A stretch of DNA of 64,000 nucleotides from Gemmatimonadota bacterium (GCA_003222195.1 QHVB01000035.1:19-64018), one strand, 5' to 3'. Positions 1,166 to 29,617 are shown, counted from the first letter of the stretch. Translations and numbers: made by a program. Notes: generated by a model not told the origin, from the sequence alone.

Positions 1166-1833
1166 TCGGTTCCTCCGGCGGCTTGTTGAGCGACCCAGGC
1201 CTTATACTCGTCGGGCGTGTGGACGAACACGCGCGCCCGCATCTTGTAGTGCCCCATCCCGCACAGCTCCGCGCAGCCCAGCTCGAACTCGCCGGTCTTG
1301 GTCGCCTCGAACCAGGCGGTGATGTGCATTCCCGGCACGGCATCCTGTTTCAGACGCCACTCGGGGACGAAGAACGAATGGATCACGTCCTCGGAGGTGA
1401 GCTCGACGGCGAACGGCTGGTTGACGATGACGTGCAGCTGGTTGCGAACGGTGAAGTCGTCACTCGTGCCGAGCTTCTCGTCCGGCCCCGGATACGTCAC
1501 CTGCCACTCGAACTGTTTGGCATGGACGCCCAGGTGATAGGCGTTCGGGGGGACGCTCTTTTTGTCCTTGATGAGCACCCAGTAGTGATTGCTGATCAGG
1601 CCGAGCGCCACCATCGTCACGGCGGGGATTGCCGTCCAGATCACTTCCGCGCGCGTCGAGCCGTGCGTGTAGAACGCCTTCCGCCCGGGACGCGCGCGGT
1701 AGCGAATCACGAACGTCACCAGTCCGGCCTCGACGAGCACGAGCGCGATCCCCGTGATGATGAGAATCGCCAGAAACAGCGCGTCGATCGGACCGGCGAA
1801 CGTCGATCCTGCGTCGGGAAGCCACCAACGCAT
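1162..1833 (-). CDS. ctaC: cytochrome c oxidase subunit II (CuA)
   Basis: 223 aa with two N-terminal TM helices. CuA motif ..HSFFVPE..CAELCGMGHYKM (H..CxExCGxxHxxM). 4-nt overlap with subunit I. Confidence 0.93.
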   Translation of the reverse strand: MRWWLPDAGSTFAGPIDALFLAILIITGIALVLVEAGLVTFVIRYRARPGRKAFYTHGSTRAEVIWTAIPAVTMVALGLISNHYWVLIKDKKSVPPNAYHLGVHAKQFEWQVTYPGPDEKLGTSDDFTVRNQLHVIVNQPFAVELTSEDVIHSFFVPEWRLKQDAVPGMHITAWFEATKTGEFELGCAELCGMGHYKMRARVFVHTPDEYKAWVAQQAAGGTE

Positions 1834-1849
1834 CGAGCTCTCCTCGCGC

Positions 1850-2623
1850 CTAGTGCGCGGCGAAGGTGAAGTTGGCCGTCTTGCTCTCGGTTCCGGCGAT
1901 CGTCACCGTCGCGGTCTGGGTGCCGAACTTCTCGTGCCAGGCTTCGATCGTGTACGTGCCGGGCGGCAGGCCGCTGATCGTAAAACTGCCGTCCTGCTGC
2001 GAGACCGCGAAGAACGGATCGGAGCGCACGCCGGCATAGGCGTGCATCCAGCCGTGGACGTTGCACTCGAGGTTGACCATCACTTCGGGCTGCGAGAACG
2101 TCACCGTTTTCGTCATGCCGGCGTTCGGCTGGCTGACGTTGAACGGTCGATTTTTCTTCGCGATCGCCTTGATGTTGTGCAGCACCGGGTCGGAATTCTT
2201 GATCTCGAGATTCTGCCCCACCATGACCCCAAGGATGTGCGGGTGGTAGCGGCAGCCGTTTTGATCGAGCACGACAGGCGTCGCCGGGGCCGGGAACGTC
2301 TGACCCGCCGGCAGACCGGACTTCACGTACACGAACACGTTGGCGAGGGCGTTAGCCGGCCCCGCCACGACGTTCTCTTCCGTCGGCGTCGTCGTGTACT
2401 TTGCCTTGCACGCCGCCTCTTCGCTCATATCGATCGCGGGGTTGCGCGGCGCCGTGCCGGTGAACTTGATCTTGCCTGTGATCGTCCCGCCAGCCGCCGC
2501 AAGGTCCGAGGCTGCCGCAGGCGCCGGGGGCGGGGCTGCCGGAGCCGCGTTGCTCTGACTGCCCTTGCTGCACACGGTGAGCAGGAACATAGCGCCCACC
2601 ACGTTGAAGATTCGGCCTGTCAT
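1850..2623 (-). CDS. cupredoxin-like (type-1 copper) lipoprotein with C-terminal CarboxypepD_reg-like beta-sandwich
   Basis: Lipobox LLTVC. Candidate T1Cu ligands ..NSDPVLHN.. and ..ECNVHGWMH (C-x2-H-x2-M, amicyanin-like spacing). C-terminal DGSFTISGLPPGTYTIEAWHEKFG. Abuts the upstream stop with 0 nt gap. Confidence 0.7.
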   Translation of the reverse strand: MTGRIFNVVGAMFLLTVCSKGSQSNAAPAAPPPAPAAASDLAAAGGTITGKIKFTGTAPRNPAIDMSEEAACKAKYTTTPTEENVVAGPANALANVFVYVKSGLPAGQTFPAPATPVVLDQNGCRYHPHILGVMVGQNLEIKNSDPVLHNIKAIAKKNRPFNVSQPNAGMTKTVTFSQPEVMVNLECNVHGWMHAYAGVRSDPFFAVSQQDGSFTISGLPPGTYTIEAWHEKFGTQTATVTIAGTESKTANFTFAAH

Positions 2624-4204
2624 TTACTGCCTCCCCTTCCGGTATGAAGTCTTCTGCTGCGCGCGCCACACGACGAGCATGCCCAACCCCAGGGTCAGCA
2701 CCATGGCGAGGACCGGCGAGATGAATACCCGAGCCGGCACCGGTTCGTCGAGGGCGAGGAAGTACCACGTACTGATGGCCATACGCGTGCCGTGCTCTCC
2801 ATTGGACCCATCCCACGCAAAGAACGCCACGGGGATAGCACGACCGCTCCGGAACGGAAGCTGGCTGGCGGTATCCGCGGAAGCAAGTGCGCGGGTGAAG
2901 ACGACGCGCCACTGACCGTGGTCATAGACGGCCTGGGTGGGGATGCCCGCCGCCGCACCCAGCGGGTCGAAGCGGTCGATCCCGCGCGCGAGTCCGGCCA
3001 CGGCCGCTGTGCGCGAGCTGCTCGACCAACGCCACTGATAGACGGGCGCGCCGGCGCTGCCCATGAGGAAATACGGCCGTTCCATTCCCGAGGGAATTGT
3101 CACGGGGAACTGCACGGCCAGCTGATCCGGCCAAGGCGCCGGTTGCTCGCGCGTCGAGTCGTCGCTGTCGAGGGTGTTGAGCACGCGACCGATGAACGGC
3201 AGCCATGACGTATCGGGGCTCGCGGAGCGGTCATCCCAGGTGACGCGCAGCGCGATCGAGTCCGCAGTGTGCACGGCCTTGACCCACACGCCCGTCACGG
3301 CGGGCGCGAACCAGCGCTCCTTGTGGATGATCTGGCCCACGAGCGGGAACCAGTACACGTCGACCGCCGTCCAGGCGGAGTCATCCGGCGAATGGGGGAG
3401 TCGCTTCGCCAGGGGCACGTGGACGACGTCGCGGACGACGGGCGGCTCCTGGGGCGACAGGCTGCGCACGTACTGCGCGACGCGCCACAGCTGCTCGTCG
3501 GTCAGGAACTTCTGCTCCAGGAGATCGCTGAACGAGGGCATCGGTGTGCCGTCGAGGCCCGTGCGCAGACGGTGGTAGATGTCCTCCACGGTGCCGCCGC
3601 CGTTGAAGCGCCAGTTCTCGTGCAGATTCGCCGCGAAGATCGGATGGCCGGCATCGTCCTTCAACGTGGGCGCCGACGGCCCGTCGCCCCGGCCCTGATC
3701 CCCGTGGCACTTGCGACAGCCGATGGAGTCGTAGAACTGACGACCGACCTTCAACGCCTCCGCGCCGCCGCCGCCCCCAGGCGCGCTGCCGTACGCGATC
3801 GGCTGCGGCCGTTGCGTCGTATCGGCGAAGAAGCTCGAGAATGTCTTGATATACGCCAACACGTCGCGGCGTTGGCGGTCGGACAGCCGAGTTTTCCATC
3901 CCGGCATCGCGGTGCCAAACAGCCCTTCATCTATAGACCGCAGCAAATCGGCGTCGGTGGGCAGCTGGCCGCTGGGTGTCGAGCGGATCTGGTAGATGGC
4001 ACCGGTGAAGTCGCGCGGCGGCGGGATCATGTGCTTCGCACCCGGACCATCACCCGCGCCGTTGTCGCCATGGCAGCCGGCGCACCATTTCTGGTACACT
4101 GCTTTTCCCGCTGATGTGTCCTGGGGGAAGGGGGACGCGGGAAGGGGGACGGGTAAGGCAAACACGAATACGAAGAGCGCTGCGATCGCAACGCTGGCGC
4201 GCAT
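2624..4204 (-). CDS. membrane-anchored di-heme cytochrome c fused to an EB_dh/DOMON-like heme-binding domain
   Basis: The track ORF 2624..4531 is over-extended (Arg-rich N-terminus). The likely start is M110 (MRASVAIAALFVFVFALPVPLPA signal) preceded by GGAAGGG. Two CxxCH motifs (CAGCH, CRKCH). The C-terminal ~300 aa match the EB_dh pattern (..DQLAVQFP..YFLMG..YQWRW..GQWRVVFTRAL..AFFAWDGSNGEHG..). C-terminal TM helix. The start coordinate may be off by 1 nt. Confidence 0.8.
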   Translation of the reverse strand: MRASVAIAALFVFVFALPVPLPASPFPQDTSAGKAVYQKWCAGCHGDNGAGDGPGAKHMIPPPRDFTGAIYQIRSTPSGQLPTDADLLRSIDEGLFGTAMPGWKTRLSDRQRRDVLAYIKTFSSFFADTTQRPQPIAYGSAPGGGGGAEALKVGRQFYDSIGCRKCHGDQGRGDGPSAPTLKDDAGHPIFAANLHENWRFNGGGTVEDIYHRLRTGLDGTPMPSFSDLLEQKFLTDEQLWRVAQYVRSLSPQEPPVVRDVVHVPLAKRLPHSPDDSAWTAVDVYWFPLVGQIIHKERWFAPAVTGVWVKAVHTADSIALRVTWDDRSASPDTSWLPFIGRVLNTLDSDDSTREQPAPWPDQLAVQFPVTIPSGMERPYFLMGSAGAPVYQWRWSSSSRTAAVAGLARGIDRFDPLGAAAGIPTQAVYDHGQWRVVFTRALASADTASQLPFRSGRAIPVAFFAWDGSNGEHGTRMAISTWYFLALDEPVPARVFISPVLAMVLTLGLGMLVVWRAQQKTSYRKGRQ

Positions 4205-4240
4205 TACCCTTCCCCCTTCCCCCGTCCCCCGTCCCCTCAT
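4120..4240 (-). promoter_or_regulatory. long imperfect G/C-rich inverted repeat enclosing the RBS, start codon and signal-peptide codons of the di-heme cytochrome c/EB_dh gene
   Basis: mRNA sense: GGGGACGGGGGACGGGGGAAGGGGGAAGGGTAA-(ATG plus ~45 nt)-TTACCCGTCCCCCTTCCCGCGTCCCCCTTCCCCC. About 33-nt arms with about 3 mismatches. The 5' arm has five G-runs. Confidence 0.4.
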
Positions 4241-5007
4241 TTCGCGGTGACCTCCCACGTCCTCGGCTTCCATCCCGTCTGATCGTACAGAAAAAGGACG
4301 ACCGACCAGATCTCGTCCTCGGTCAGAAAGTCTTCCCACGCGGGCATCGCCGAATTCCACGGTGTTCCTTCGCGCGGCAGCCCGGGGCCGCCCTTGGCGA
4401 TGCGCCAGAAGACAAAGCTCTCGGTCAGCTGCGCGATCGTGCCGTTGTCCTGGAAATTTGCCGGGAGGGGATTGAACCCACTCGCGAAATGGCCCTGACC
4501 GTCGAGATGGTCGCCGTGACATGGGACGCAATTTTGATAATAGATTCGGCGACCTTCGGCGACATGCGGCGCCAGCTCTCCTTGTTTGCGTAACGGGTTC
4601 TCAAGGCCCACAAGGGTGATCGTCTTGCCGCGGAACGTGATCTGCGAGGGCGGCGCGGGGTGAATCGACCGGAGATTGGGCGGCGCCGCGACACTCGCCT
4701 TCACCTGGCTGTAGGTGAGACAGCCCACGACCAGTGTGACGGCTGCGAGCAGGCCGTTTCGGACCAGCTTGAGCCGCGGCTGGATGAGCACCTCGTGCAA
4801 CGGCTCCTTGAACGTGGTCCAGCGCGCCTCGTCATCGCTGACCCAGATCAGGATCCCGACCAGCACGGTCGCCATGTACTGCAACACGACACTACTTGGC
4901 ACCATGGCGCTGCCGGGTAGCATCGGGATGACGAATACGATCACGAGATACGCCAGCACGAACAGGCCCACGGCCTGCCAGAACGGGTGGCGTAGGTAGG
5001 CTCTCAT
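4237..5007 (-). CDS. membrane-anchored mono-heme cytochrome c
   Basis: 256 aa with N-terminal TM helices, one CVPCH heme motif and a distal ..NSAMPAW.. Met. ATGA overlap with the upstream gene. Confidence 0.8.
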   Translation of the reverse strand: MRAYLRHPFWQAVGLFVLAYLVIVFVIPMLPGSAMVPSSVVLQYMATVLVGILIWVSDDEARWTTFKEPLHEVLIQPRLKLVRNGLLAAVTLVVGCLTYSQVKASVAAPPNLRSIHPAPPSQITFRGKTITLVGLENPLRKQGELAPHVAEGRRIYYQNCVPCHGDHLDGQGHFASGFNPLPANFQDNGTIAQLTESFVFWRIAKGGPGLPREGTPWNSAMPAWEDFLTEDEIWSVVLFLYDQTGWKPRTWEVTAK

Positions 5008-5807
5008 TTCTGGCTCGACAGGAATTGCACCAGCGCTTCGAGCTGCGCGCCGGTCAGCTGATTGCCGAACATCTTCGGCATGACCCCGACGAACTTCTCG
5101 TAGCCTTTCGCGACCCGAGTATCAGGCTTGAGAATGCATTCGCGGATCAACGCCGCCGACAAGCGCGAACCGACGTGCGTCAGGTTTGGCCCAATGGCGC
5201 CGCCTTCGGTGCCGACCTTGTGACAGCCGGTGCAGCCCGCGCCGCGGATGATCGTCATCGGCTCGGTGGATCCGCCGGCGATCCCTGGCCCTCCGCCGCC
5301 ACTGGCGGCAGGGGCGGCAGAGGCGGCAGGGCCGGATGCTGCGGGGATGTCCGACGCGGTCACGTCGACCGTGCCGCTCTGCGATTCAAGGAAGGCAACC
5401 AGCGCCCAGATCTGTTGGGGCGAGAGAATGCGGCCCATCTCCGGCATGATCGGCTCATAGCCGGACACGACGTAGGCGCGAGGGCTCGTGAGCGACTCAT
5501 AGAGGTAGGCCTTGCAGTCTTTGCCGGCCTCGCGTTTGCCGCAGCGCGCGCCGATCGGGCCCAGTCCCTTTTCGTCGGTCAGGAGATTCGGGGCCCGCGT
5601 GCCCAGTCCGTGACAGGCAGTGCAACCGCCCGCGCCGTGGTACAGCTGGTCGCCGGCTGCTACCAGCTGCTCGGGCGTCACGTTCGCACCGAGGGTGAGC
5701 GCGTGCGGCACCTCCGACTGCACCTGCGGGATCTTGTTCGCGATCAGGGTATACAGCGCCAGGGTGCCGAGCACGATCCCGATGATGCGCAGGTTAGTGG
5801 CCCACAT
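5004..5807 (-). CDS. membrane-anchored di-heme cytochrome c
   Basis: 267 aa with an N-terminal TM anchor, CTACH and CTGCH motifs, each followed by an MP(E/K)M-type Met region, and an Ala/Gly/Ser linker between the two domains. Confidence 0.85.
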   Translation of the reverse strand: MWATNLRIIGIVLGTLALYTLIANKIPQVQSEVPHALTLGANVTPEQLVAAGDQLYHGAGGCTACHGLGTRAPNLLTDEKGLGPIGARCGKREAGKDCKAYLYESLTSPRAYVVSGYEPIMPEMGRILSPQQIWALVAFLESQSGTVDVTASDIPAASGPAASAAPAASGGGGPGIAGGSTEPMTIIRGAGCTGCHKVGTEGGAIGPNLTHVGSRLSAALIRECILKPDTRVAKGYEKFVGVMPKMFGNQLTGAQLEALVQFLSSQK

Positions 5808-7497
5808 GCGGCGCCTCCGTCGACGGAACGAACGTCGATTTTTCCGCGAGCCCGCCGAGCCAGAAAATGAAGCCGACGAGGGAGAGGAAGATCAGCACGC
5901 AGGTACTGATCATGATCGCGGCGTAGCCCAGCGCCGGCGTCGCGGCGTACGGCGTCGTATCCTGCATGACCTGCCAGACATGCCAGTGCTGGCGGATGCC
6001 GCTGCGCGCGAATCCCATCAGACCCATCAGCCACGTGAACGTGACCGCGAGAATGAATAGCGCGTACTGCGAGCGCGGCGGCATCTTGCCCCACTGAATG
6101 GCCCCGAGCGACTGCGCGCCGCGGGCCATGAGTACGTCGATCACGGTCACGAACACGATGCAGGCGAGCACCGCGCCGACCTGATACACCGAGTATCCGA
6201 TGCGCACGATCGCTTCGACGAAATAGCCGCGGATCCCGAAGAAGAGCACGACGCCCGCGGCGATGACGAACATTGCCGCCTGAATCCGGGTGCCCGTTTT
6301 GGCCCAGGGCACCACCTGGCGGATATTCGCGCGGCGATACAGGAGGAAGGAGAGGAACGTCGACAGAATCATCAGGTTCACGGCGGTGTTCTTGGCGCTC
6401 ATCACGCCGAGCGCGCCGAGCAGCGGGTGGTGCGAGCCACCCATGGCCGCGAGCTCACGCGAGTCCGCGATCATCGTATGCGGCGTCCCCCACACGAGCG
6501 CACCCAGCACCAGCACTACCAGGAGCCACTTCGTGTAGGGCCGGAACCGCTCCGCGCCGGGGATCCGACCCATCCCGACCCAGAGGTAGTAGTTGCCCGC
6601 CAGGAACAGCACCGCGATCAGGAACGCCTGGATCACCCACAGCCAGCTCATGAAACCACCCATCATCGTGATGCCCATCGACTGGTCGTACTGATAGATC
6701 TCGCGTCCCAGCCAGTAGCCCGCGAACGGCAGCACGATCAACGCCGAGATCGCGATGAAATTGCCGACGTACCCCATCCAGTCGTAGTGCGCCCGTTCCT
6801 CATCCGTCTTGGCCGCGAGGAAGCGGTAGCTCGCGTACGCACCCACGATCGCCCCACCGAACACGACGTTGCCGATCAGGCGGTGGATGTTGATCGGCAT
6901 CCAGGTGTGATTGAGGATGGCGTGCCAGAGCTTGATGCTGGCGGGCGAGGTTTCGGGCGTGATGTCGCGCGGCGGCGTCATCATGTAGGTGAGCCAGGAG
7001 TCGGCGATGAACATCACCGCGGTCCCCCAGATGTTCAGCAGAATGCCCAGGCACCAATGCACGATCTTCGCCCGCCCCTGTTTCCAGCGGTCCCAGCCGT
7101 AATAGTAGAGGTACAGGGTGAACGACTCGAAGAAGAAGATCGAGACGTACACCCACATCGACACGCCGAAGATCGCCGTCAGATACGCCCAGAACCGCGG
7201 ATACAGCGTCGACAGCAGGAACACGAAGACCGCGCCCCAGATCGCGGTCGCGCTATAGGCGATCAGCAGGAGCCGCGTGAACTCTTTCGCGAGCCGGTCG
7301 TAGCGCTGGTCCTTGCCGAAGATCCCGATCGCCTCGGCGACCACCGCGAAAATCGGCACCCCCAGCACGAACGCCGCGAACATCAGATGGATCTCGGCGG
7401 CGATCCAGATCGCCGCGCGGCTGCCGATGACCGGGAAGTCGCGGTAGGCGGCGGCGCTGTCGGCGGCGGCTTGGACGAGGGCGAAGACGTGCGCCAT
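5794..7497 (-). CDS. cytochrome bd-like oxidase subunit I homolog (CydA-only, no Q-loop, no adjacent cydB)
   Basis: CydA signatures: ..AAEIHLMFAAF (TM1 His), FFFESFTLYLYYYGWDRW, INIHRLIGN. About 14 predicted TM helices and no hydrophilic loop longer than ~30 aa. ATG at 7495-7497 overlaps the radical-SAM TGA by 1 nt (the track starts at a TTG one codon earlier). Confidence 0.85.
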   Translation of the reverse strand: MAHVFALVQAAADSAAAYRDFPVIGSRAAIWIAAEIHLMFAAFVLGVPIFAVVAEAIGIFGKDQRYDRLAKEFTRLLLIAYSATAIWGAVFVFLLSTLYPRFWAYLTAIFGVSMWVYVSIFFFESFTLYLYYYGWDRWKQGRAKIVHWCLGILLNIWGTAVMFIADSWLTYMMTPPRDITPETSPASIKLWHAILNHTWMPINIHRLIGNVVFGGAIVGAYASYRFLAAKTDEERAHYDWMGYVGNFIAISALIVLPFAGYWLGREIYQYDQSMGITMMGGFMSWLWVIQAFLIAVLFLAGNYYLWVGMGRIPGAERFRPYTKWLLVVLVLGALVWGTPHTMIADSRELAAMGGSHHPLLGALGVMSAKNTAVNLMILSTFLSFLLYRRANIRQVVPWAKTGTRIQAAMFVIAAGVVLFFGIRGYFVEAIVRIGYSVYQVGAVLACIVFVTVIDVLMARGAQSLGAIQWGKMPPRSQYALFILAVTFTWLMGLMGFARSGIRQHWHVWQVMQDTTPYAATPALGYAAIMISTCVLIFLSLVGFIFWLGGLAEKSTFVPSTEAPHVGH

Positions 7498-8768
7498 CAA
7501 CTATCGGCCACGAAGAAGGGACGTTGCTTGGAGAAGTCCACCGGCATCGCGCTGCGGATTTCCGTCAGCAGCTCGGGCGTGATCTCGTGCACGCCCCGCG
7601 CCAGCGCCCAGTCTTCAACTCGCTTGGCCACGACCCCGCGCACGAAGGACGGGATGCGATCGAGCCGCGCGCGCGCGGCAGCCGACCAGGCAAGCGCGGG
7701 GACAAAATCCTTCCCATACGTGATGTCGCGCTCCGGCTCAATCACGGCAGCACCCGACGGTTCATAGACGCACGATGGATCGGCCGCCATCACGTCGCCC
7801 TCGAGCGCGAACGCCCTCGCGCGGCAGCCGCCACACAGCCTTTGGTACTCGCAGCGGCCGCACTTGCCGCCCAACGTCCCTTCCCGCAGCTGCCGGAACA
7901 GCGGCGCGGAGCGCCAGATCTCGCCGAAGTTCTGCGCGCGCAGGTCGCCCGCGACCTCGGGGAGATAGGGGCAGGGCGTCAGCTTCCCGTCGGGCGTGAT
8001 GCGGCAGTATTGCGTCCCGCACGGACAGCGCGTCGCGTAGTTGAGAATCGGCGAGTCGGGATCGGCCGAATGCACATGCCGCATGAAGTGCGGCGCGCAC
8101 TTGGCGCGAATCATCATCTGGCCGCGGTACTGGCGCTGCCAGCGGGCGAGGTCGGCGAGGACCGCTTCGTATTCGGCGGGCGCCAGATCGGACAGCCCCG
8201 CACCGCGTCCCGTCGCCACGAGGAAATAGCAGTTGAACGCGACCGCGCCCTGCTCCGCCGACCACTGCGCCACCCGCTCGAGCTCGGCGCGATTGCCCTT
8301 GGTCGCCGTCGTCTGGATGATGAAATCGAGTCGCTGCGCGCGCAGGCGCCCCAGCGCCGCGATCGTGTCGTCGAGCGAGCCCTTGCCGTGCCGGAAGTTG
8401 TCGTGATAGGTCGGCCGCAGCGAGTCGATCGACACCGCGACACCGCGGACGCCCGCCCCCTTGAGCCCCGCGATGCGCTCATCGGTCAACAGCGTGCCGT
8501 TCGTGCCGACGACCACCGTCGCGCCTTGCCGCGACGCGTAACCCGCGATCTCGGTCAGATCGTGACGCAGCAGCGGCTCGCCGCCCGACAGAATGATCAT
8601 GGGCGCCGGGTTGACCGCGAGCAGCTCATCGACGATGCGCAAGCAGTCCGCGGTGCCCAGCTCCGAGGTGGCCGATTCGTGCGGGCCGGCGGCGATGTAA
8701 CAGTGGGCGCACTCCAGGTTACAGCGCCGCGTGAGATTCCAGGCGACGACGTGCGGAACGTAGCTCAC
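7497..8768 (-). CDS. radical SAM/SPASM enzyme with C-terminal PCP_red (ChlB/BchB C-terminal-like) domain
   Basis: CNLECAHC (CxxxCxxC) and a GGEPLL SAM motif. SPASM cysteines CPCGTQYC..CPYL..GKCGRCEYQRLCGGCRARAF. C-terminal WSAAARARLDRIPSFVRGVVAKRVEDWALARGVHEITPELL. The likely start is the GTG forming a GTGA overlap with the upstream stop (the track ORF extends to 8834). Confidence 0.85.
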   Translation of the reverse strand: MSYVPHVVAWNLTRRCNLECAHCYIAAGPHESATSELGTADCLRIVDELLAVNPAPMIILSGGEPLLRHDLTEIAGYASRQGATVVVGTNGTLLTDERIAGLKGAGVRGVAVSIDSLRPTYHDNFRHGKGSLDDTIAALGRLRAQRLDFIIQTTATKGNRAELERVAQWSAEQGAVAFNCYFLVATGRGAGLSDLAPAEYEAVLADLARWQRQYRGQMMIRAKCAPHFMRHVHSADPDSPILNYATRCPCGTQYCRITPDGKLTPCPYLPEVAGDLRAQNFGEIWRSAPLFRQLREGTLGGKCGRCEYQRLCGGCRARAFALEGDVMAADPSCVYEPSGAAVIEPERDITYGKDFVPALAWSAAARARLDRIPSFVRGVVAKRVEDWALARGVHEITPELLTEIRSAMPVDFSKQRPFFVADS

Positions 8769-10738
8769 TGCAGCAGCTTCTCGATTGCCCGCTTCGCTTC
8801 CTCGGGCGTCACGGTCTTCATGTCGACTGGACACTTCTCCATCTTCTCTTCGATATCGCGGATGGGGCAGCGCGTGATGCCTTGCGCCTTGGCTTCTTCG
8901 ATGAACGCACGCATCTCAGGCGACAGTGCGTCTTTCCCCTCGGCCTCTGCCCTGATCTGCTTCGCCCGCAGCTCGGTGAACATCACCATCATCGTGTCCA
9001 CGTCGAACTCGTCGGCTTCGATCATCGCCTGCTTGTTGTTATCCATGACGTGGGTCGTGACGCGCCAGATGTCGTGATTGCGGGCGAAGCGCTCGACGGT
9101 GTTGCGCGCCAGCGGCCGGGCGATGAGCGGCACGAGCTGCAGCCGTTGCCAGCTCTCCTCCGTCCACACGATGGGATCGGTGGCGACGCGCGGGCGCTTG
9201 GACACCGCACCCGTCACGGGGCATTTCGTCTCGACTTCGGCGACTGCCGGCTCCGCATCGGCGTCGCGCCCCTGGACCTTCGTGGCTTTCAGCTGCTCCG
9301 TCGCCTTCAGCTCGGCCAACGCGATTTCTTCCGCGCTCCCGATCCCCATAATCAGCTGCATGTGCGTGGGGAGGAGCTTCTGGATCGCCTCGTCGAGCCA
9401 CTTGTTCGTGACGGTGGGCGGCGGCCCGCCATTGCCCGCCTTTTCGAGGACGTACTCTTCGACGGCGCGCCGCGCGATGCCCTGCGCGAAGGGCGGAACG
9501 CGGAGAATCCGGACTTCGGCTTCCGGAGCCCACGGCAACCCCGCCTGGCCGTCTTCCTCGATCCAGGGAATGTCTTCCGGGCGAACACCGACGACACCCG
9601 TCAACAGCACGTCGCACGGCGCGAGCCGCACCAGGTTCTCCGACTGGCTGCCGAGCTCCGTGTGCTCGATGCGATGGGCCCCATGCCGGCCGATGACCAG
9701 CAACGTCGGTTTGATCTCGTCCGCCCACTGCATGATCACCTGGAACGGCTTGCCGATGAGGATCTGCGTCTTGATCGGGACATCCGGGAACTGCTGCGCC
9801 ATGACCTCGGCGCGTTTGAGATTCGCCTGGCAGAGCTTGAGCAAGCCCTTGTCGATGATGTTGTTGTGCAGCTCTTCCTGCTCTTCGAACTTGAAGACTT
9901 TCGACGCCTGATAGGACAGCACGTCCTTGATGTTGTGGAAGACGACGTGATGATACTCCACGTCGAAGGCGCTGCAGACATACAGCGACGCGCCGAACGC
10001 CTGGGCCAGCTCGAGCGCGGATTTCATGGCCTGGTAGCTGTAGGACGAGCCGTCGACGCAGACCAGGAAGCGCCCGCCGGTGAGCGGCTGCTGATCGCGC
10101 ACGATCAGCACGTCTTTCTCGACGCCGCGTAACACGCGAGCCGCTACACCACCGAGCTGCGAAAACTCCTGCCGCCCCAGTCCATGCGCGCCGAGCGCGA
10201 GCAGGTCGTACTGCCGTCCCGACGAGCCGACGAGGCGCGCGGCGGAGTCTTCCTCTTCCGCGACGAGCCGGCCGTTCTCGCCGAGCTTTACGTCGCTGCG
10301 GACCTTGTCGCCCCCGTCGTAGCCTGCGGCGCGGTTGGGATCGAAGCCGATCAGGCCCGGCAGGCGCCCAGCCCCGCGGTTCACCTCGTTGACGATCTCT
10401 TCGTAGTTGATGCCTTCGAGCAGCTGCCGTGTGAGCGCCACGCCCGAAGCTTCGCAGCGCTTGCCGAGCTGATCGAGAAAACTGTCGGCGATGAGCTGCA
10501 GTCCCTTTTCGATCAGCTTGTCGTGGATCTTGCGCTGCTTCTTGATCTCTTCAGGAGTCTGGAACTGAGCGGGGAGGCCGGTCTCGAGCTGGCGGAAGCG
10601 GACATCGTGCAGGCGGGCGGCGTAGACGTGATTCCCGGTGATCCGTCCGCCCGACTTGCGACACATCTCGATGGCGCGATCGACGGCCCAATCGGAGTGC
10701 TGCGAGTTGTCGACGGGAACGAAAATCTCGCGGTACAC
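8765..10738 (-). CDS. tandem universal-stress-protein (USP) domains fused to two PCP_red-like domains and a Cys-Pro-containing tail
   Basis: 657 aa. USP-like blocks: IFVPVDNSQHS..LLALGAHGLG.. and FLVCVDGSSYS..LLVIGRHGAH..GSQSENLVRLAPCDVLL. PCP_red-like blocks: WAPEAEVRILRVPPFAQGIARRAVEEYV.. and WTEESWQRLQLVPLIARPLARNTVERFA... GTG start with a GGGGAGG SD. Confidence 0.8.
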   Translation of the reverse strand: MYREIFVPVDNSQHSDWAVDRAIEMCRKSGGRITGNHVYAARLHDVRFRQLETGLPAQFQTPEEIKKQRKIHDKLIEKGLQLIADSFLDQLGKRCEASGVALTRQLLEGINYEEIVNEVNRGAGRLPGLIGFDPNRAAGYDGGDKVRSDVKLGENGRLVAEEEDSAARLVGSSGRQYDLLALGAHGLGRQEFSQLGGVAARVLRGVEKDVLIVRDQQPLTGGRFLVCVDGSSYSYQAMKSALELAQAFGASLYVCSAFDVEYHHVVFHNIKDVLSYQASKVFKFEEQEELHNNIIDKGLLKLCQANLKRAEVMAQQFPDVPIKTQILIGKPFQVIMQWADEIKPTLLVIGRHGAHRIEHTELGSQSENLVRLAPCDVLLTGVVGVRPEDIPWIEEDGQAGLPWAPEAEVRILRVPPFAQGIARRAVEEYVLEKAGNGGPPPTVTNKWLDEAIQKLLPTHMQLIMGIGSAEEIALAELKATEQLKATKVQGRDADAEPAVAEVETKCPVTGAVSKRPRVATDPIVWTEESWQRLQLVPLIARPLARNTVERFARNHDIWRVTTHVMDNNKQAMIEADEFDVDTMMVMFTELRAKQIRAEAEGKDALSPEMRAFIEEAKAQGITRCPIRDIEEKMEKCPVDMKTVTPEEAKRAIEKLLQ

Positions 10739-10841
10739 CGCTACCTCCCCGAGTGACGCCGCTCGAGCGGGTCGCCTAACCTCTAGATGTCGGTGTGGAT
10801 GCCGTCAGAGTTAAGGGATATGCAGGCATGCCCCAGTGCTG

Positions 10842-11105
10842 TCAAGGAACTTGTTCACAAGCCGCGGGGACGATCTGGATGCCGTTTTCGTTCCAAACCG
10901 TAATTGCGTCTACTGGGCAAGCGTCGCACGCGCGCAGCAGGCGCTCGCGGTCGGCGGCGTCCGGCTGCACGAACACCGCCGTCCCGCTCTCATCGAGCAC
11001 GAACGCCTCGGGCGCCTCGGTGATGCAGTCGCCGAAGCCGACGCACAGCGTGCGGTCGATGCGGACGCGCAGCTCACCGACGGTCCGTTCCTCGAAATCG
11101 CTCAC
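10842..11105 (-). CDS. small single-cluster ferredoxin (3Fe-4S/4Fe-4S, CxxxxxC..CP type)
   Basis: The C-terminal 87 aa of track ORF 10842..11264: ..RIDRTLCVGFGDCITEAPEAF..LLRACDACPVDAI... The GTG start forms a GTGA overlap with the stop of the upstream Zn-ribbon gene. The N-terminal part of the track ORF overlaps that gene and is Arg/His-rich. Confidence 0.75.
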   Translation of the reverse strand: MSDFEERTVGELRVRIDRTLCVGFGDCITEAPEAFVLDESGTAVFVQPDAADRERLLRACDACPVDAITVWNENGIQIVPAACEQVP

Positions 11106-11503
11106 ATCCCTTCCAATCCCAGCTCGCTCCGGGCGTTGTCCATGATCGCTGGCGTGATCTCCGTGATGCCGCGTTCCCGCGCATAGTCGGCGTAGATCTT
11201 CTTCACCATGCCGCGCACGAAGCTCGGCACCCGAGCAAGCCGCTCCTGGGCGTCGCCCGACCACGCCGGACCACCGGTCACGACGTTCGCGCGCAGCATC
11301 TCGAACGGCTCAGCGGGAACCGTGCGACCGCCGATCTCGACGCCCAACGACGACACGAGCTGGGTTTCCATGGGATTTGTCAGCATCGCCACGACGCGGC
11401 CGCATTTCGGGCACTTGAACGTCGCCGCCAGCGTGCCGTCGCCGGGCAGCTCGCGCTGCGCGAAGGCCATTTGCTGATCGCACTCAACGCAGAGGAATTT
11501 CAT
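11102..11503 (-). CDS. zinc-ribbon protein with C-terminal PCP_red-like domain
   Basis: 133 aa. CVEC..x22..CPKC ribbon. WSGDAQERLARVPSFVRGMVKKIYADYARERGITEITPAIM. 4-nt overlap with the upstream ATPase gene. Confidence 0.7.
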   Translation of the reverse strand: MKFLCVECDQQMAFAQRELPGDGTLAATFKCPKCGRVVAMLTNPMETQLVSSLGVEIGGRTVPAEPFEMLRANVVTGGPAWSGDAQERLARVPSFVRGMVKKIYADYARERGITEITPAIMDNARSELGLEGM

Positions 11504-12249
11504 AGCTGCGCTGCCAACTGGCTCCAGGTCTCCGGTGTCGGGTGCCAGGGGATGCGCGCGAGCACCGGTGTCGCGAACTCTTCAGCCAAGTCCTGCGCTG
11601 CGGTTCCCACGAACTCCCGGCCGACCATGTTCTCCACGATGCCGAGCAGCTCGGAGCCACGGTCGACGGCGGCGCGCATGGCGCGCCGGACGGCGTCGCG
11701 GGACTCGGGGGTCGGGATGGTCACCGTGAGCACGGCCGGCGGGTTGCCGAGGATGTCGCACAGCTCGATGTAGCGCTGCATCCCGGGCGGGAGATCGACC
11801 AACAGGACGTCGAGGGTACCCCACTCCACGTCGCCGAGAAACTCGCGCAGCGCGGACGCCTCCATGGCGCCGCGCCACACGAAACTCTCGGCCGCCGGAC
11901 CCGTGAACGAGAGGGGAGCGCCCGCGTCCAAGAACTGCCCCATGGAGATGCATTTCACGCCATCGAGGCCGACCGCCGGCGGCTGGGCGGTCGGCGGTGC
12001 CTGCAGCAGGCCGGGGATCGTCGGGCCATTCAGGTCGGCATCGAGCACGCCCACGCCCCAGCCGCCGCGGGCCAGGGCACGTGCCAGGTGCGCCGTGACG
12101 TAACTCTTTCCTACGCCGCCCTTCCCGCTCATCACCGTCACGATCCGCCGTACACCGGCCAGGCGCTCCGCCACGCGCTTGCGCTGGGCGCCGATCTGGT
12201 CGAGAAGGCCGGAGCGGTCGGGGTCGGTCAGCTGATGATAGGTCCGCAC
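11500..12249 (-). CDS. Mrp/MinD-family P-loop ATPase (deviant Walker A), lacking the Mrp/ApbC CxxC cluster motif
   Basis: VMSGKGGVGKS Walker A, ..LLVDLPPG.. Walker B-like. No CxxC is visible. First gene of the long minus-strand operon. Confidence 0.85.
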   Translation of the reverse strand: MRTYHQLTDPDRSGLLDQIGAQRKRVAERLAGVRRIVTVMSGKGGVGKSYVTAHLARALARGGWGVGVLDADLNGPTIPGLLQAPPTAQPPAVGLDGVKCISMGQFLDAGAPLSFTGPAAESFVWRGAMEASALREFLGDVEWGTLDVLLVDLPPGMQRYIELCDILGNPPAVLTVTIPTPESRDAVRRAMRAAVDRGSELLGIVENMVGREFVGTAAQDLAEEFATPVLARIPWHPTPETWSQLAAQL

Positions 12250-12295: not shown

Positions 12296-12781
12296 ATGAT
12301 CGAAGCGCTCAAACAAAGGCTCCAGTCCGAAGTCGAACGCCTGAATCACGAAATCTCGTTTGTCCTGCCGAAGGAAATCGAGAAGGCGCGCGCCCACGGT
12401 GACCTGCGCGAGAACTCCGAATACAAGGCCGCGCTCGAGCGGCAGCAATTCGCCCAGGCGCGCGTGCATCACTTGCGTCTGCGCCTTGCGAAACTCTCCG
12501 ACGTCCGCGAGCAAGACATTCCGCGTGACCGCGTCGGGTTTGGGTCGCGGGTGACCGTCGAAGACGTCGACACGAAAAAGAAAGAGATTTACGCGTTGAC
12601 CCTCGGCGAGTTTATCGAGGGTGAGGATGGCGAGGAGATGCCGGTCTCGATGGCATCACCGCTCGGGAAGGCCTTGCTCGGAGGAAAAGTCGGTCAGAAG
12701 GTGGACATCACACTGCCGATGGGCAAGCGCAAGCTCAAGATCGTGAGCGTAGCTACGGTGCACGATCTGGCGGGCTCTTGA
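12296..12781 (+). CDS. greA: transcription elongation factor GreA
   Basis: 161 aa. ..ARAHGDLRENSEYKAALERQ.. coiled-coil signature and a C-terminal FKBP-like ..VSMASPLGKALLGGKVGQ... Confidence 0.92.
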   Translation: MIEALKQRLQSEVERLNHEISFVLPKEIEKARAHGDLRENSEYKAALERQQFAQARVHHLRLRLAKLSDVREQDIPRDRVGFGSRVTVEDVDTKKKEIYALTLGEFIEGEDGEEMPVSMASPLGKALLGGKVGQKVDITLPMGKRKLKIVSVATVHDLAGS

Positions 12782-16766: not shown

Positions 16767-17393
16767 TTATTTCTTGGCGGCCTGGAAGTAGGGGTTGGCG
16801 CCCGACGTGTGGTCGGTGATATCCACGATGCCGCGCACCGCCGGCACCAGCTGTGCCAGCATGCCCTCGATGCCTTGGCGCAGCGTGACGTCGGCCATCC
16901 CGCACCCCTGGCAGCCGCCTCCCATGCGCAGCATCACGACCGCGTCCTGGACGTCGATGAGCTCGACGCGCCCACCGTGCCGCGCGACCATCGGATTAAC
17001 CTGCTCTTCGAACACCCGCGCGACCTGCTCGTAGAGCGCGTCGTCATTGACCGCTGATCCTTCACCGGAAGCCGGCCTTTGCGCCGGATGGACCGCCGGC
17101 ACGTCCGCCGTCAATGTGGATCGTATGGCGTCACCGACCGACCGACCGACCGCCTGCCAGGGCGCCGCAGACCGCTTGACTACGGTGACGAGGTTGCCCG
17201 ACACAATCAGCTCGCTCACCGCGAGCCCCGGGATCGCGAAGATCGCCTCGGCGAGGGGAGAGCCTCTCGCGTCGTCGGCTCCGGAGAAGCGGCGCACCCC
17301 TCCCGCCAGCACCGGTACGCTCACGACGAACTTGCAGCGATTGGTGTCGATCGGTTCCGCCGTGATCCGAACGTCCGTCGGGTTACCGGGCAC
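16767..17393 (-). CDS. NfuA-like Fe-S cluster carrier (Nfu_N plus NifU C-terminal CxxC domain)
   Basis: 208 aa with C-terminal ..[34 protein letters not shown]... Confidence 0.85.
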
Positions 17394-26743: not shown

Positions 26744-26755
26744 AGAGAACTCCTC

Positions 26756-29554: not shown

Positions 29555-29617
29555 GCCTTTCGGGATGGGATCGTTCGCCCTAGTGCTACCGCGCTCCGCG
29601 AAGACCGTCAAGCGACG

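Follow-up and report, generated by a model that had tools for sequence, protein, structure and literature searches.

The radical SAM enzyme AhbD occurs in organisms of the coproporphyrin-dependent pathway that have no other AHB enzymes (PMC13564367), and its relatives NirJ and AhbC show that new side-chain chemistry is readily evolved in this family (PMC10114771). HemW, a radical SAM paralogue of the heme biosynthetic enzyme CgdH, needs its cluster to insert heme b into NarI, a respiratory subunit (PMC10114771). With regard to the oxidases, OR-N2 operons encode several cytochromes c and an EbdC homologue, and the related archaeal enzyme CydAA' contains b hemes only (Murali et al.). Here we analysed a 64,000-nucleotide stretch of DNA from a Gemmatimonadota bacterium with a Gemmatimonadales-like genome (the window), in which a CydA homologue of the OR-N2 type directly follows a set of genes for an AhbD-like radical SAM/SPASM enzyme and putative helper proteins (the module). 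The initial annotation had described this gene set as having no assigned function, and we likewise found no literature on the module.

Gene organization

The genes of the module and the oxidase are all on the minus strand and are listed from 5' to 3' of that strand.

11500..12249, minus strand: Mrp/NBP35/NUBPL-type P-loop ATPase without the CxxC site (249 aa; PF10609, ParA/NUBPL, 146 bits)
11102..11503, minus strand: Cys4 ribbon and PCP_red protein (133 aa; PCP_red 56.4 bits)
10842..11105, minus strand: single-cluster ferredoxin (87 aa; Fer4_13 43 bits, Fer4_15 40.8 bits)
10816..10845, minus strand: promoter-like element TTGACA-N-CATATC (consensus match only; its -35 part overlaps the ferredoxin stop codon)
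8765..10738, minus strand: tandem USP protein with two PCP_red domains (USP2P, 657 aa; Usp 128 bits, PCP_red 58.5 bits)
7497..8768, minus strand: AhbD-like radical SAM/SPASM enzyme with a C-terminal PCP_red domain (423 aa from GTG at 8768)
5794..7497, minus strand: CydA homologue, OR-N2 type (567 aa; Cyt_bd_oxida_I 67.9 bits, profile positions 2-405 of 418)
5004..5807, minus strand: dihaem cytochrome c (267 aa; Cytochrom_C and Cytochrome_CBB3, two stretches each)
4237..5007, minus strand: membrane-anchored monohaem cytochrome c (256 aa; Cytochrome_CBB3 39 bits)
2624..4204, minus strand: two cytochrome c domains and an EbdC/NxrC-like heme b domain (EB_dh), with a C-terminal TM helix
1850..2623, minus strand: lipoprotein-like protein o257 with a type-1-copper-like motif and CarboxypepD_reg (38.6 bits)

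The ATPase and ribbon genes overlap at ATGA, the ribbon and ferredoxin genes at GTGA, and the USP and radical SAM genes at GTGA, while the TGATG stop-start overlap between the radical SAM gene and cydA agrees with the translational coupling of these two genes proposed in the initial annotation. The dihaem cytochrome c gene overlaps the 3' end of cydA by 14 nt and the monohaem gene its upstream neighbour by 4 nt. The genes are translationally coupled from USP2P on through the cytochromes. The start of the radical SAM gene, formerly placed at 8834, is most likely the GTG at 8768, because the homologues are about 424 aa long and the GTGA overlap with the USP stop codon results from this choice.

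The ferredoxin and USP genes are separated by 103 nt with the conserved promoter-like element. A TTGACA ... TATATA/CATACT arrangement is also found 5' of the USP gene in other Gemmatimonadota loci (L002, L004, L005, L006 and L011), though the element before the USP gene was absent from the output of a generic scan. Because of this conserved site, the co-transcription of the whole gene set that had been assumed is doubtful, and a separate transcript may, judging from sequence, cover the ATPase, ribbon and ferredoxin genes. The same gap holds a 17-codon ORF, which is not kept in related loci. As every other junction overlaps, there is no space for a precursor peptide gene elsewhere in the module.

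Downstream, no cydB is adjacent to the CydA homologue. The EbdC-like fusion protein scored 63.7 bits for EB_dh, 78.7 bits for Cytochrom_C and 96.6 bits for the heme b subunit of type II DMSO reductases (TIGR03477), under the cut-off of 170; its start codon was inferred from a signal-peptide-like N-terminus. The motif H...C-x2-H-x2-M of o257 was read off the sequence and a Rokubacteria homologue. Recurring beside the module or oxidases in 24 of the 69 loci described below, o257 is part of the respiratory neighbourhood, not of the cytoplasmic module.

The radical SAM/SPASM enzyme

The radical SAM enzyme scored 85 bits for Radical_SAM, 36.7 bits for SPASM and 46.6 bits for PCP_red. Its best family profiles were NirJ2 (TIGR04055, 300 bits) and AhbD (TIGR04545, 297 bits), and these AhbD-type models were about 120 bits higher than NirJ (178 bits) and AhbC (161 bits). 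AhbD-type models were also on top for PCP_red-fused homologues of Brocadia, Nitrospina, Poribacteria and Rhizobiaceae (290-345 bits, window enzyme included), with a lead of at least 100 bits over NirJ, AhbC and all RiPP maturase models. On the other hand, true AhbD of Methanocellaceae and Syntrophus reached 554-560 bits, exceeding the curated cut-off of 500 bits that applies to both profiles, and because the window enzyme stays below it, it may use another substrate, or form another product, than AhbD does.

The catalytic hallmarks are all retained, namely the CX3CX2C motif (C16-C23), the GGEP motif and eight SPASM cysteines (C224-C333). The spacing of the latter, C-x23-C-x17-C-x36-C-x2-C-x5-C-x2-C-x17-C, is kept in nearly all homologues and exactly matches the published full AhbD motif. 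Neighbour-joining placed the PCP_red-fused enzymes together in a single clade next to AhbD-like sequences of archaea and left AhbC-like ones outside. Thus, the profile scores, cysteine spacing and tree narrow the NirJ/AhbC/AhbD branch suggested in the initial annotation to the AhbD-like part, and on this sequence evidence the enzyme is a member of a distinct AhbD-like clade. Some homologues carry the JGI name 'AdoMet-dependent heme synthase', and in some the enzyme itself bears PCP_red three or four times. The AF2 model of the window enzyme had pLDDT 85 and pTM 0.77. The closest solved folds were PqqE, SkfB, SuiB and anSME, which mainly reflects the set of solved structures, since no AhbD or NirJ structure was among the matches in two PDB searches.

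PCP_red domains and helper proteins

PF08369 exceeded the curated Pfam cut-off (32.5) in all three proteins, which supports both the homology to PCP_red and the count of four copies in three proteins made at first from a recurring motif. The copy on the radical SAM enzyme is at nt 7557-7688, shifted by about 12 nt from the earlier 7545-7676; those of USP2P are at about aa 401-445 (nt 9404-9538) and aa 525-567 (nt 9038-9166), and that of the ribbon protein is at aa 81-125 (nt 11129-11263). When aligned, the four copies share an invariant W, R and P, and among solved structures they match 2kru and 2l09, two NMR structures of PCP_red by itself, and the final ~50 residues of ChlB/BchB chains; the ribbon protein itself matches the same structures and C-termini. 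The idea that this part of ChlB caps the bound tetrapyrrole was not confirmed; the protochlorophyllide-contact residues tabulated in a 2026 review fall outside the ~45-aa PCP_red segment.

The tandem-USP core of USP2P was modelled by AF2 with pLDDT 85-94, with TTHA0350 and Rv2623 as the best Foldseek matches, and H37, H44, H72, H263, H291 and H355 with their flanking motifs are invariant across phyla. A natural fusion protein (P0280) joins two USP domains, PCP_red, radical SAM, SPASM and PCP_red in the same order as the genes of the window. The ferredoxin gene is restricted to loci of Gemmatimonadota, in which the internal Cys4 motif of the USP protein has been lost. In the ribbon protein, C5, C8, C31 and C34 are 93-100% conserved among 28 homologues, and this Cys4 ribbon with its CPxCG knuckle is possibly rubredoxin-like.

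The ATPase gene adjoins the Cys4-PCP_red gene in 33 loci. Its product scored 130 bits for MrpORP (cut-off 450) and 100 bits for ApbC (cut-off 348), and its Walker A motif SGKGGVGKS is invariant in 35 homologues. No cysteine is conserved across these 35, so the CxxC cluster site of Mrp is truly absent. By Pfam cut-offs and homologue alignment, the initial assignments all hold, namely a radical SAM/SPASM enzyme, a tandem USP protein, a ferredoxin with a single cluster and an Mrp-like ATPase that lacks CxxC.

Distribution across phyla

Among 69 species-level genome loci anchored on the gene for the PCP_red-fused radical SAM enzyme, USP-PCP_red was found in 43, ribbon-PCP_red in 34, the ATPase in 33, an EbdC-like protein in 26 and the CydA homologue in 24. 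An OR-N2 CydA homologue or EbdC-like heme b partner was within reach in 26 of the 43 USP-containing loci, and some oxidase or heme gene was near in 34 of them. The module is spread over 12 or more lineages of phylum level, which include Gemmatimonadota, Acidobacteriota, Planctomycetota (Anammoxibacter), Nitrospirota, Myxococcota, Desulfobacterota-like bacteria, Alpha- and Gammaproteobacteria, Rhodothermota/Bacteroidota and Binatota, with Verrucomicrobiota and Fibrobacterota added by USP-anchored look-ups. In the reverse direction, with the CydA homologue as anchor, the module was present in 33 of 80 metagenome loci (upstream of the oxidase in 23, downstream in 10); these loci are phylogenetically non-independent, like the other sampled ones, and fall into 5 clusters at 70% CydA identity. 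Among loci flanked on either side by 4 kb or more, only L137 was without the module, and 46 loci were too short to judge. As expected from the initial annotation, the module is found across phyla mostly beside the bd-like oxidase, but not exclusively. The CydA homologue is absent within 10 kb of the module in Poribacteria, Rokubacteria and several proteobacterial loci, and in the former two the module accompanies genes for heme-copper oxidase, heme O synthase (CtaB) or SCO. Moreover, the radical SAM gene is alone in Nitrospina, Brocadia and Scalindua, and a solitary USP-PCP_red homologue occurs in Dormibacteria (L086).

A gene for a HemY-type proto/coproporphyrinogen oxidase (TIGR00562, 250 bits, cut-off 98) is directly 3' of the radical SAM gene in at least eight proteobacterial/deltaproteobacterial genome loci and in L081-L083 and L085. 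In Proteobacteria, the usual route to heme is through protoporphyrin. The loci examined showed no gene for ferrochelatase or ChdC, and AhbA/B genes were absent from the PCP_red-type loci, unlike the archaeal ones.

Discussion

The data show the domain identities, the family placement, the overlaps between genes and, across phyla, a genomic association seen from both anchors. We see about an even chance that the module makes heme by oxygen-independent AhbD-type chemistry and hands it off, dedicated to the OR-N2 oxidase, and we infer the substrate, product, hand-off and role of every helper protein. Domains, synteny and AhbD-type placement are in favour of the dedicated tetrapyrrole modification or delivery pathway of the initial annotation, which is supported in part, with its function as the inferred part. 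Further support comes from the HemY-type gene after the radical SAM gene and the adjoining CtaB and SCO genes as independent links to tetrapyrroles, from the fusion protein P0280 as a physical link, from the exact AhbD cysteine spacing, and from the precedents of AhbD without other AHB enzymes and of HemW. The radical SAM enzyme would act on an iron tetrapyrrole at its propionate side chains, most likely converting coproheme to heme b, and the product would pass, unreleased, to the CydA homologue and its EbdC-like heme b partner, both encoded directly downstream. The PCP_red domains (one on the enzyme, two on the USP protein, one on the ribbon protein) may be a shared element that joins the proteins or covers the bound tetrapyrrole, and the nucleotide-binding tandem-USP protein, with its six invariant histidines, may be a scaffold or heme-holding partner. 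The ferredoxin may be the electron partner required for radical SAM turnover, a task that in other phyla may fall to a rubredoxin-like Cys4 insert of the USP protein. The cysteine-less Mrp-type ATPase and its Cys4-PCP_red partner may drive ATP-dependent assembly, in which either the cofactor is handed off or the enzyme is loaded with Fe-S. It is a puzzle that an oxygen-labile enzyme should serve an oxygen reductase; a role of the module under low oxygen is our guess.

Rather unlikely, though the best of the alternatives, is that the enzyme is a housekeeping anaerobic coproheme decarboxylase, that is, an AhbD orthologue of the coproporphyrin-dependent pathway that supplies heme b to all hemoproteins, is near respiratory genes for co-regulation only, and is tuned or protected by the PCP_red, USP and ATPase proteins. 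The best-matching AhbD-type models, the exact cysteine motif, the JGI name, the lack of AhbA/B, the adjoining HemY and the precedent of AhbD without other AHB enzymes (PMC13564367) fit such an enzyme, and the solitary copies of Nitrospina and Brocadia show that it can work away from the oxidase. However, its retention inside the OR-N2 cluster in both orders and at least 12 lineages, with a stop-start overlap onto cydA, is unexpected for a housekeeping gene, the scores are ~200 bits short of the AhbD equivalog cut-off, and protoporphyrin-route Proteobacteria have the module, with a HemY-like gene of its own, beside OR-N2 genes.

This last fact, the distinct clade under the AhbD cut-offs, the tight co-occurrence with one enzyme family and the ready evolution of side-chain chemistry in NirJ and AhbC (PMC10114771) would also suit a non-standard heme dedicated to the OR-N2 oxidase, e.g. 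partly decarboxylated coproheme or another side-chain change, comparable with heme d1 of cd1 nitrite reductase. We consider this improbable, since the radical SAM and SPASM motifs are identical to those of AhbD, archaeal CydAA' has b hemes only, and the module also adjoins heme-copper oxidase genes. Still less probable is a non-catalytic chaperone that, by analogy with HemW and its cluster-dependent delivery to NarI (PMC10114771), would insert finished heme b into membrane subunits with the help of the PCP_red proteins and ATPase. The ATPase and the additional PCP_red domains, of which one enzyme can have as many as four, resemble handling rather than catalytic parts, and the USP partner has invariant histidines, but the CX3CX2C, GGEP and eight SPASM cysteines are all intact, and with HemY as a direct neighbour in many loci synthesis fits better than trafficking alone. 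Finally, a maturase of RiPPs or other peptides with PCP_red as peptide-recognition elements, to which the nearest folds and the 17-codon ORF might point, is extremely unlikely, because peptide-maturase models scored at most 143 bits versus 300 for AhbD-type ones, the tree agrees with the latter, the neighbours are heme and respiratory genes, and no conserved precursor peptide gene is present at the module, including the ferredoxin-USP gap compared with related loci.

The reading of a dedicated heme-making and hand-off module for the OR-N2 oxidase places an AhbD-like enzyme next to an operon whose make-up, several cytochromes c and an EbdC homologue, matches the OR-N2 operons of Murali et al.

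Gene organization of the module and the oxidase

A single tightly packed gene string lies on the minus strand from about 1160 to 12249, downstream of a divergent greA-like gene.

Genes of the string and its upstream boundary
12296-12781, divergent: greA-like gene, upstream boundary
11500-12249, minus strand: Mrp/NUBPL-type ATPase
11102-11503, minus strand: Cys4-ribbon protein with C-terminal PCP_red
10842-11105, minus strand: single-cluster ferredoxin
Between the ferredoxin and USP genes, minus strand: 103-nt gap
8765-10738, minus strand: tandem-USP protein with two PCP_red
7497-8768, minus strand: radical SAM/SPASM (rSAM) enzyme with C-terminal PCP_red
5794-7497, minus strand: CydA homologue
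5004-5807, minus strand: dihaem cytochrome c
4237-5007, minus strand: monohaem cytochrome c
2624-4204, minus strand: two cytochrome c domains fused to an EbdC/NxrC-like heme b domain
1850-2623, minus strand: cupredoxin-like lipoprotein, 257 aa
1162-1833, minus strand: CoxB

Neighboring genes overlap by ATGA, GTGA, GTGA and TGATG. The TGATG overlap with the rSAM gene bears out the translational coupling of the module to the CydA homologue that the initial annotation had claimed, while the rSAM start placed there at 8834 is replaced by the GTG at 8768, as judged from the GTGA overlap and the length of homologues, about 424 aa. A generic scan found no terminator-like sites between the operon genes (10 matches, all elsewhere, against 6.0 ± 2.5 expected). 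The gap before the USP gene holds a candidate promoter, TTGACA-N-CATATC, which overlaps the ferredoxin stop, and equivalent TTGACA...TATATA/CATACT elements lie 5' of the USP gene in five further Gemmatimonadota loci. Therefore, the USP, rSAM, cydA and cytochrome genes very likely form a single translationally coupled unit with its own putative promoter. Co-transcription of all the genes, as originally suggested, thus very likely holds from USP to the cytochromes, but the ATPase, ribbon and ferredoxin genes may form a separate upstream transcript. This fits the position of the ferredoxin gene upstream of the ATPase gene in three of the compared loci (L005, L008 and L011). A sigma-54 promoter in the ferredoxin-USP gap was ruled out by direct reading, because the GG-GC spacing misfits.

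The oxidase genes comprise a CydA homologue together with several cytochromes c and an EbdC homologue, lack an adjacent second cydA-like or cydB gene, and hence fit the OR-N2 type; this assignment combines Pfam matches with the family description in the text and supplement of Murali et al. Bd-like oxidases of the OR-N type are presumed to act as terminal oxidases in nitrite oxidisers and in numerous phyla from soil and sea, and later surveys of Nitrospirales and Nitrospinota describe them as uncharacterised. The bd-like cluster is followed, in the same orientation, by CoxB, a subunit II with the CuA motif (1162-1833, minus strand), and in related Gemmatimonadota loci the series extends to CoxA, CoxC, subunit IV and heme O synthase; therefore the bd-like and heme-copper oxidases constitute one respiratory island. 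The lipoprotein-like protein at 1850-2623 carries a type-1-copper-like motif, NSDxxLHN ... C-x2-H-x2-M, followed by a CarboxypepD_reg domain, and its N-terminal part matches no Pfam or NCBIfam family. Its homologues occur in 24/69 loci (e.g. L040:7061-7810) across phyla, beside OR-N2 genes, heme-copper oxidase genes and the module, and it may be a blue-copper electron carrier of these clusters. Elsewhere in the window, an Nfu/NifU-type Fe-S scaffold protein (16767-17393, minus strand) lies 4.5 kb upstream of the module and adjoins an ATP-grasp ligase and a GT87 glycosyltransferase. Three TonB-dependent-type outer-membrane receptors with N-terminal CarboxypepD_reg (24083-29611, 37072-39513 and 54559-57618, all minus strand) and a 1019-aa adenylation-plus-carrier (NRPS-like) protein appear to have no relation to the module.

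Family placement of the radical SAM enzyme

Among NCBIfam models, the AhbD-type ones ranked first for the window enzyme, with 300 bits for TIGR04055 "NirJ2" and 297 bits for TIGR04545 heme b synthase (cut-off 500), and all NCBIfam scores stayed under their cut-offs. Control AhbD proteins from Methanocellaceae and Syntrophus loci scored 554-560 bits, over the 500-bit cut-off. The PCP_red-fused homologues of Brocadia, Nitrospina, Poribacteria and Rhizobiaceae scored 290-345 bits, always with AhbD-type models first. The enzyme is a radical SAM protein (PF04055, 85 bits) with the CX3CX2C motif C16-x3-C20-x2-C23, invariant in two homologue alignments (A2 and A5), and also a SPASM protein (PF13186, 36.7 bits) with eight conserved SPASM cysteines (C224, C248, C266, C303, C306, C312, C315 and C333). 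The published full spacing of AhbD, CX20-33CX17CX36-37CX2CX5CX2CX17-35C for two auxiliary clusters (PMC10452713), was matched as a regular expression by residues 224-333 and likewise by nearly all homologues. Thus, the placement in a NirJ/AhbC/AhbD branch proposed at the outset narrows to AhbD-like by scores and SPASM spacing; NirJ (178 bits, cut-off 515) and AhbC (161 bits, cut-off 650) match far less well, each in two stretches. In a neighbor-joining tree without support values, the PCP_red-fused enzymes form one clade beside archaeal AhbD-like proteins, with AhbC-like ones outside. By sequence, the enzyme is AhbD-like, yet outside the AhbD equivalog. Only the archaeal and Syntrophus loci (L074 and L077-L079) yielded AhbA and AhbB (159 and 187 bits, over their cut-offs), which were absent from all 69 loci of the PCP_red type.

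A peptide (RiPP) maturase, which the initial annotation had named as the competing reading, is ruled out by the model scores and the missing conserved precursor gene: the best peptide-maturase model, MftC, reached only 143 bits (cut-off 265) and the sole small ORF is not conserved, so that the tetrapyrrole reading stands. The AlphaFold model of the enzyme (pLDDT 85, pTM 0.77) predicts a three-helix PCP_red unit on a flexible linker. Its Foldseek matches were PqqE, SkfB, SuiB and anSME only; AhbD or NirJ structures were not among the matches of two PDB searches. The closest named relatives of the window protein are Gemmatimonadales MAG proteins of at most 87% identity, and an exact-sequence look-up gave no match.

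PCP_red domains and accessory proteins

All domains named by the initial annotation, including the four PCP_red copies, were confirmed by Pfam, with the copies over the curated cut-off: the three proteins scored 56.4, 58.5 (two stretches) and 46.6 bits against a gathering cut-off of 32.5. The four copies align mutually and correspond to the final ~50 residues of ChlB/BchB chains of solved structure (2xdq_B 461-510 of 511, 2ynm_D 480-529 of 530 and 3aek_B 458-520 of 525), as well as two stand-alone PCP_red NMR structures. PCP_red is present in 23/24 diverse rSAM homologues, and some others carry three or four on the enzyme. P0280, a homologous fusion protein (1066 aa; L081:10001-13201), joins two USP domains, PCP_red, rSAM, SPASM and PCP_red in the gene order of the window, and another homologue, P0271 (803 aa), has two radical SAM/SPASM units with PCP_red in between. 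The DPOR subunit B models TIGR01278 and NF002789 gave 39-44 bits against cut-offs of 490-509, matching over only the last ~55 profile positions, and ChlN/ChlL genes are missing from the ORF list of the flanking 18 kb; the window proteins are thus not DPOR subunit B. The C-terminal region of ChlB/BchB covers bound protochlorophyllide in DPOR crystal structures. The substrate-contact residues given in a 2026 DPOR review fall outside the PCP_red segment, and a role of the last ~50 ChlB residues is not described in the DPOR literature examined.

The N-terminal half of the USP protein (Usp, 128 bits in three stretches) is predicted to be a tandem USP like TTHA0350 and Rv2623, with 3ab8 and 3cis as top Foldseek matches of the model. 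By direct reading, GRHGAHRIEHTELGS in USP domain 2 fits the nucleotide motif G-x2-G-x9-G-(S/T); domain 1 ends in G-G instead. Six histidines (H37, H44, H72, H263, H291 and H355) are invariant across at least 10 phyla, within the motifs HVYAAxxHDxRFxQxE and QRxIHDxLI of domain 1 and YDPYxHY and QLHEExID of domain 2. Such histidine motifs repeated in both domains are unusual among USP proteins. Their conservation suggests a putative metal- or heme-binding site, and the segments holding them (residues 37-80 and 259-300) have pLDDT of 50-65 in the AlphaFold2 model, below the USP core. The USP protein of most other phyla carries three PCP_red units as well as a CxxCG...CxVC insert within the chain, which precomputed Pfam annotation assigns as a rubredoxin-like domain in some members. 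The Gemmatimonadota form has lost this Cys4 insert, and a separate ferredoxin gene is found only in Gemmatimonadota loci. This coincidence, a pattern from a single lineage, hints at an electron-transfer role of the Cys4 unit. The USP-PCP_red family has more than 2000 database matches. One member, P0328 of Candidatus Moanabacter tarae (L084), is labelled "Light-independent protochlorophyllide reductase subunit B", a misannotation due to its PCP_red domains.

The ATPase has an invariant deviant Walker A motif and, as first noted from the sequence, no CxxC cluster site: across 35 homologues, cysteine conservation never exceeds 6%. Hence, it has no means of bridging an Fe-S cluster in the manner of Mrp/NifH-type proteins, and a NifH/BchL-like electron-donating ATPase is ruled out on the same ground. 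In the ribbon protein, four cysteines including the CPxCG knuckle are 93-100% conserved.

Distribution and genomic association

A search of 50%-identity representatives yielded about 35 clusters of PCP_red-tailed rSAM enzymes. Taking one genome per species, a forward scan gave 69 loci (L001-L069) with the fused gene in many phyla, whose flanks of ±10 kb were analyzed by ORF clustering and profile searches.

Genes near the fused rSAM-PCP_red gene in the forward scan
USP-PCP_red gene: 43/69 loci
Ribbon-PCP_red gene: 34/69 loci
ATPase gene: 33/69 loci
EbdC-like gene: 26/69 loci
CydA homologue: 24/69 loci
Cupredoxin-like gene: 24/69 loci
CoxA: 14/69 loci
HemY-type oxidase: 8/69 loci

OR-N2 genes were within reach in 26 of the 43 USP-containing loci, and some oxidase or heme gene in 34. 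In the reverse scan, anchored on a CydA-homologue alignment, 33 of 80 metagenome loci had rSAM-PCP_red, USP-PCP_red or both, and the contigs of 46 were too short to judge; only L137 had at least 4 kb on both sides and an EbdC-like gene yet no module. Both gene orders are represented, with the module on the upstream side of cydA in 23 loci and on the downstream side in 10. The reverse sample is rather shallow: clustering by CydA identity reduces it to 27 groups at 80% and 5 at 70%. The association of the module and the OR-N2 oxidase is strong in both directions, and the co-occurrence with bd-like oxidases in other genomes that the first reading had called for is evident, with 33 positive loci against one informative negative in the reverse scan.

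Three layouts recur: the module 5' of cydA (Gemmatimonadota); the module 3' of the EbdC-like gene (Acidobacteriota, Rhodothermales, Bacteroidota and Binatia); and a proteobacterial form, in which HEAT-repeat, cupredoxin-like and USP-PCP_red genes precede an rSAM gene with 3-4 PCP_red and then a HemY-type oxidase gene. In Thiolapillus and a Lamellibrachia symbiont, this last form is divergent from adjoining cydA, cytochrome c and EB_dh genes. USP-anchored look-ups found the full association in Verrucomicrobiota and Fibrobacterota genomes and a solitary USP-PCP_red gene in Dormibacteria. The module adjoins cox, heme O synthase and SCO genes in Poribacteria and Rokubacteria, and the rSAM-PCP_red gene is solitary in Nitrospina, Brocadia and Scalindua. 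On the contig of L062 (Binatia), the whole CydA...rSAM cluster is present as two near-perfect inverted copies that join at the rSAM gene, which probably reflects faulty assembly.

Several loci have further neighbors. Two alphaproteobacterial loci (L054 and L060) carry an arsenite-oxidase-type Rieske subunit upstream of the module (TIGR02694, 115 bits, over the cut-off); their cupredoxin-USP-rSAM-HemY genes are also preceded by a large gene of ~890 aa, one resembling a dihaem peroxidase and one for a HEAT-repeat protein of 746 aa, and MoeA lies downstream, a possible tie to a molybdoenzyme. In Gammaproteobacteria (L082/L085), a conserved membrane-anchored protein of ~105 aa without a known family comes after the HemY-like gene; next are a PAS histidine kinase and a sigma-54 response regulator, suggesting dedicated regulation of the cluster. 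In the Poribacteria loci (L013-L027), the rSAM gene is immediately preceded by a four-helix membrane protein of the CopD/HemJ superfamily; downstream lie a zinc-ribbon/HEAT protein and a small protein that matches PCP_red weakly (22 bits, cut-off 32.5), and if this match is true, Poribacteria would have five PCP_red copies per cluster. The CopD/HemJ-like protein was dropped as a second porphyrinogen oxidase link, as its matches (CopD in 10/11 members, HemJ in 7/11) are ambiguous and all below cut-off.

Predicted function

The link to tetrapyrroles has three independent supports, namely the family placement, the HemY adjacency and the heme/oxidase neighborhood. For the second, the gene right after rSAM in the proteobacterial loci passes the proto/coproporphyrinogen oxidase model TIGR00562 (250 bits, cut-off 98), and a HemY-type gene likewise follows the fusion protein P0280. 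The most likely function of the module is an oxygen-independent, AhbD-type heme-forming step, which would be coupled to hand-off of the heme into the OR-N2 oxidase. What PCP_red, the USP protein, the ATPase and the Cys4 unit each contribute to it is inferred.

With regard to other readings, the AhbD-type scores also accord with a housekeeping heme synthase, which seems rather unlikely beside the repeated OR-N2 neighborhood. Production of a non-standard heme by the module, which the HemY-type neighbors in Proteobacteria would favor, appears quite improbable. The least probable of these three is a pure heme chaperone, in which the enzyme would carry heme without forming it; the conserved CX3CX2C motif and SPASM cysteines count against it. 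We consider it possible, though unlikely, that the module is a self-contained, ATP-assisted heme line, in which a PCP_red scaffold would build the cofactor and insert it directly into OR-N2. The cofactor could then be a non-standard heme made from coproporphyrinogen via HemY-like and AhbD-like steps, and PCP_red would be a general tetrapyrrole-holding or hand-off domain that is also used by chlorophyll biosynthesis (ChlB). If true, this would be the first cofactor pathway dedicated to a member of the cytochrome bd superfamily.

The accessory module of the AhbD-like enzyme is previously undescribed. The rSAM, USP, PCP_red and ATPase genes are unmentioned in the text and supplements of Murali et al. 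and in the later Nitrospirales and Nitrospinota surveys, and within the library searched, literature searches pairing bd-like oxidases with radical SAM, AhbD, heme synthase or NirJ yielded nothing relevant, nor did those for PF08369/PCP_red. A near-obligate AhbD-like neighbor module offers a testable handle on the heme supply of OR-N enzymes and on whether their heme is ordinary. Moreover, a large unnamed protein family is now defined by tandem USP, PCP_red and invariant histidines, and PCP_red turns from an appendage of a chlorophyll enzyme into a recurrent module of heme-related proteins in non-phototrophs. The database labels "protochlorophyllide reductase subunit B" and "heme d1 NirJ2" are corrected accordingly.

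Comparison with known systems

The genes downstream of the module fit the context described for OR-N2 operons by Murali, Gennis and Hemp (2021), who defined the OR-N family and reported several cytochromes c and an EbdC homologue as typical of these operons. ChlB/BchB share with the window proteins the homology of their extreme C-terminus to the PCP_red segment of ~45-50 residues, but the window proteins lack the nitrogenase-like catalytic domain and a ChlN/ChlL partner, and carriers of the PCP_red module include non-phototrophs. With a deviant Walker A motif and a PF10609 domain, the ATPase resembles the Fe-S carriers Mrp, NBP35, ApbC and NUBPL; proteins of the NUBPL type act, by their family description, as assembly factors for respiratory complexes. 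Unlike these carriers, it has no cluster-bridging CxxC, falls below the ApbC and MrpORP cut-offs and is always paired with a separate Cys4-PCP_red protein.

HemW, a radical SAM protein related to a heme biosynthetic enzyme, is the heme insertase for the respiratory subunit NarI (PMC10114771). Both HemW and the window enzyme are related to an anaerobic heme biosynthetic radical SAM enzyme and associated with heme delivery to a membrane respiratory complex, known for HemW and proposed for the window enzyme, but HemW belongs to the CgdH/HemN lineage, whereas the window enzyme is of the SPASM AhbD lineage, and HemW has no PCP_red, USP or ATPase partners. AhbD is the best-scoring family, aligning in full length over the radical SAM and SPASM parts with the CX3CX2C motif and an identical eight-cysteine SPASM spacing. 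The window enzyme also occurs without AhbA/B/C, as does AhbD in coproporphyrin-pathway organisms that have no other AHB enzymes (2026 review, PMC13564367). On the other hand, it scores 297-300 bits against 554-560 for true AhbD and falls in a separate clade, enzymes of its type carry one to four C-terminal PCP_red domains, and it resides not in an ahb cluster but in an oxidase cluster with USP, ATPase and ribbon partners.
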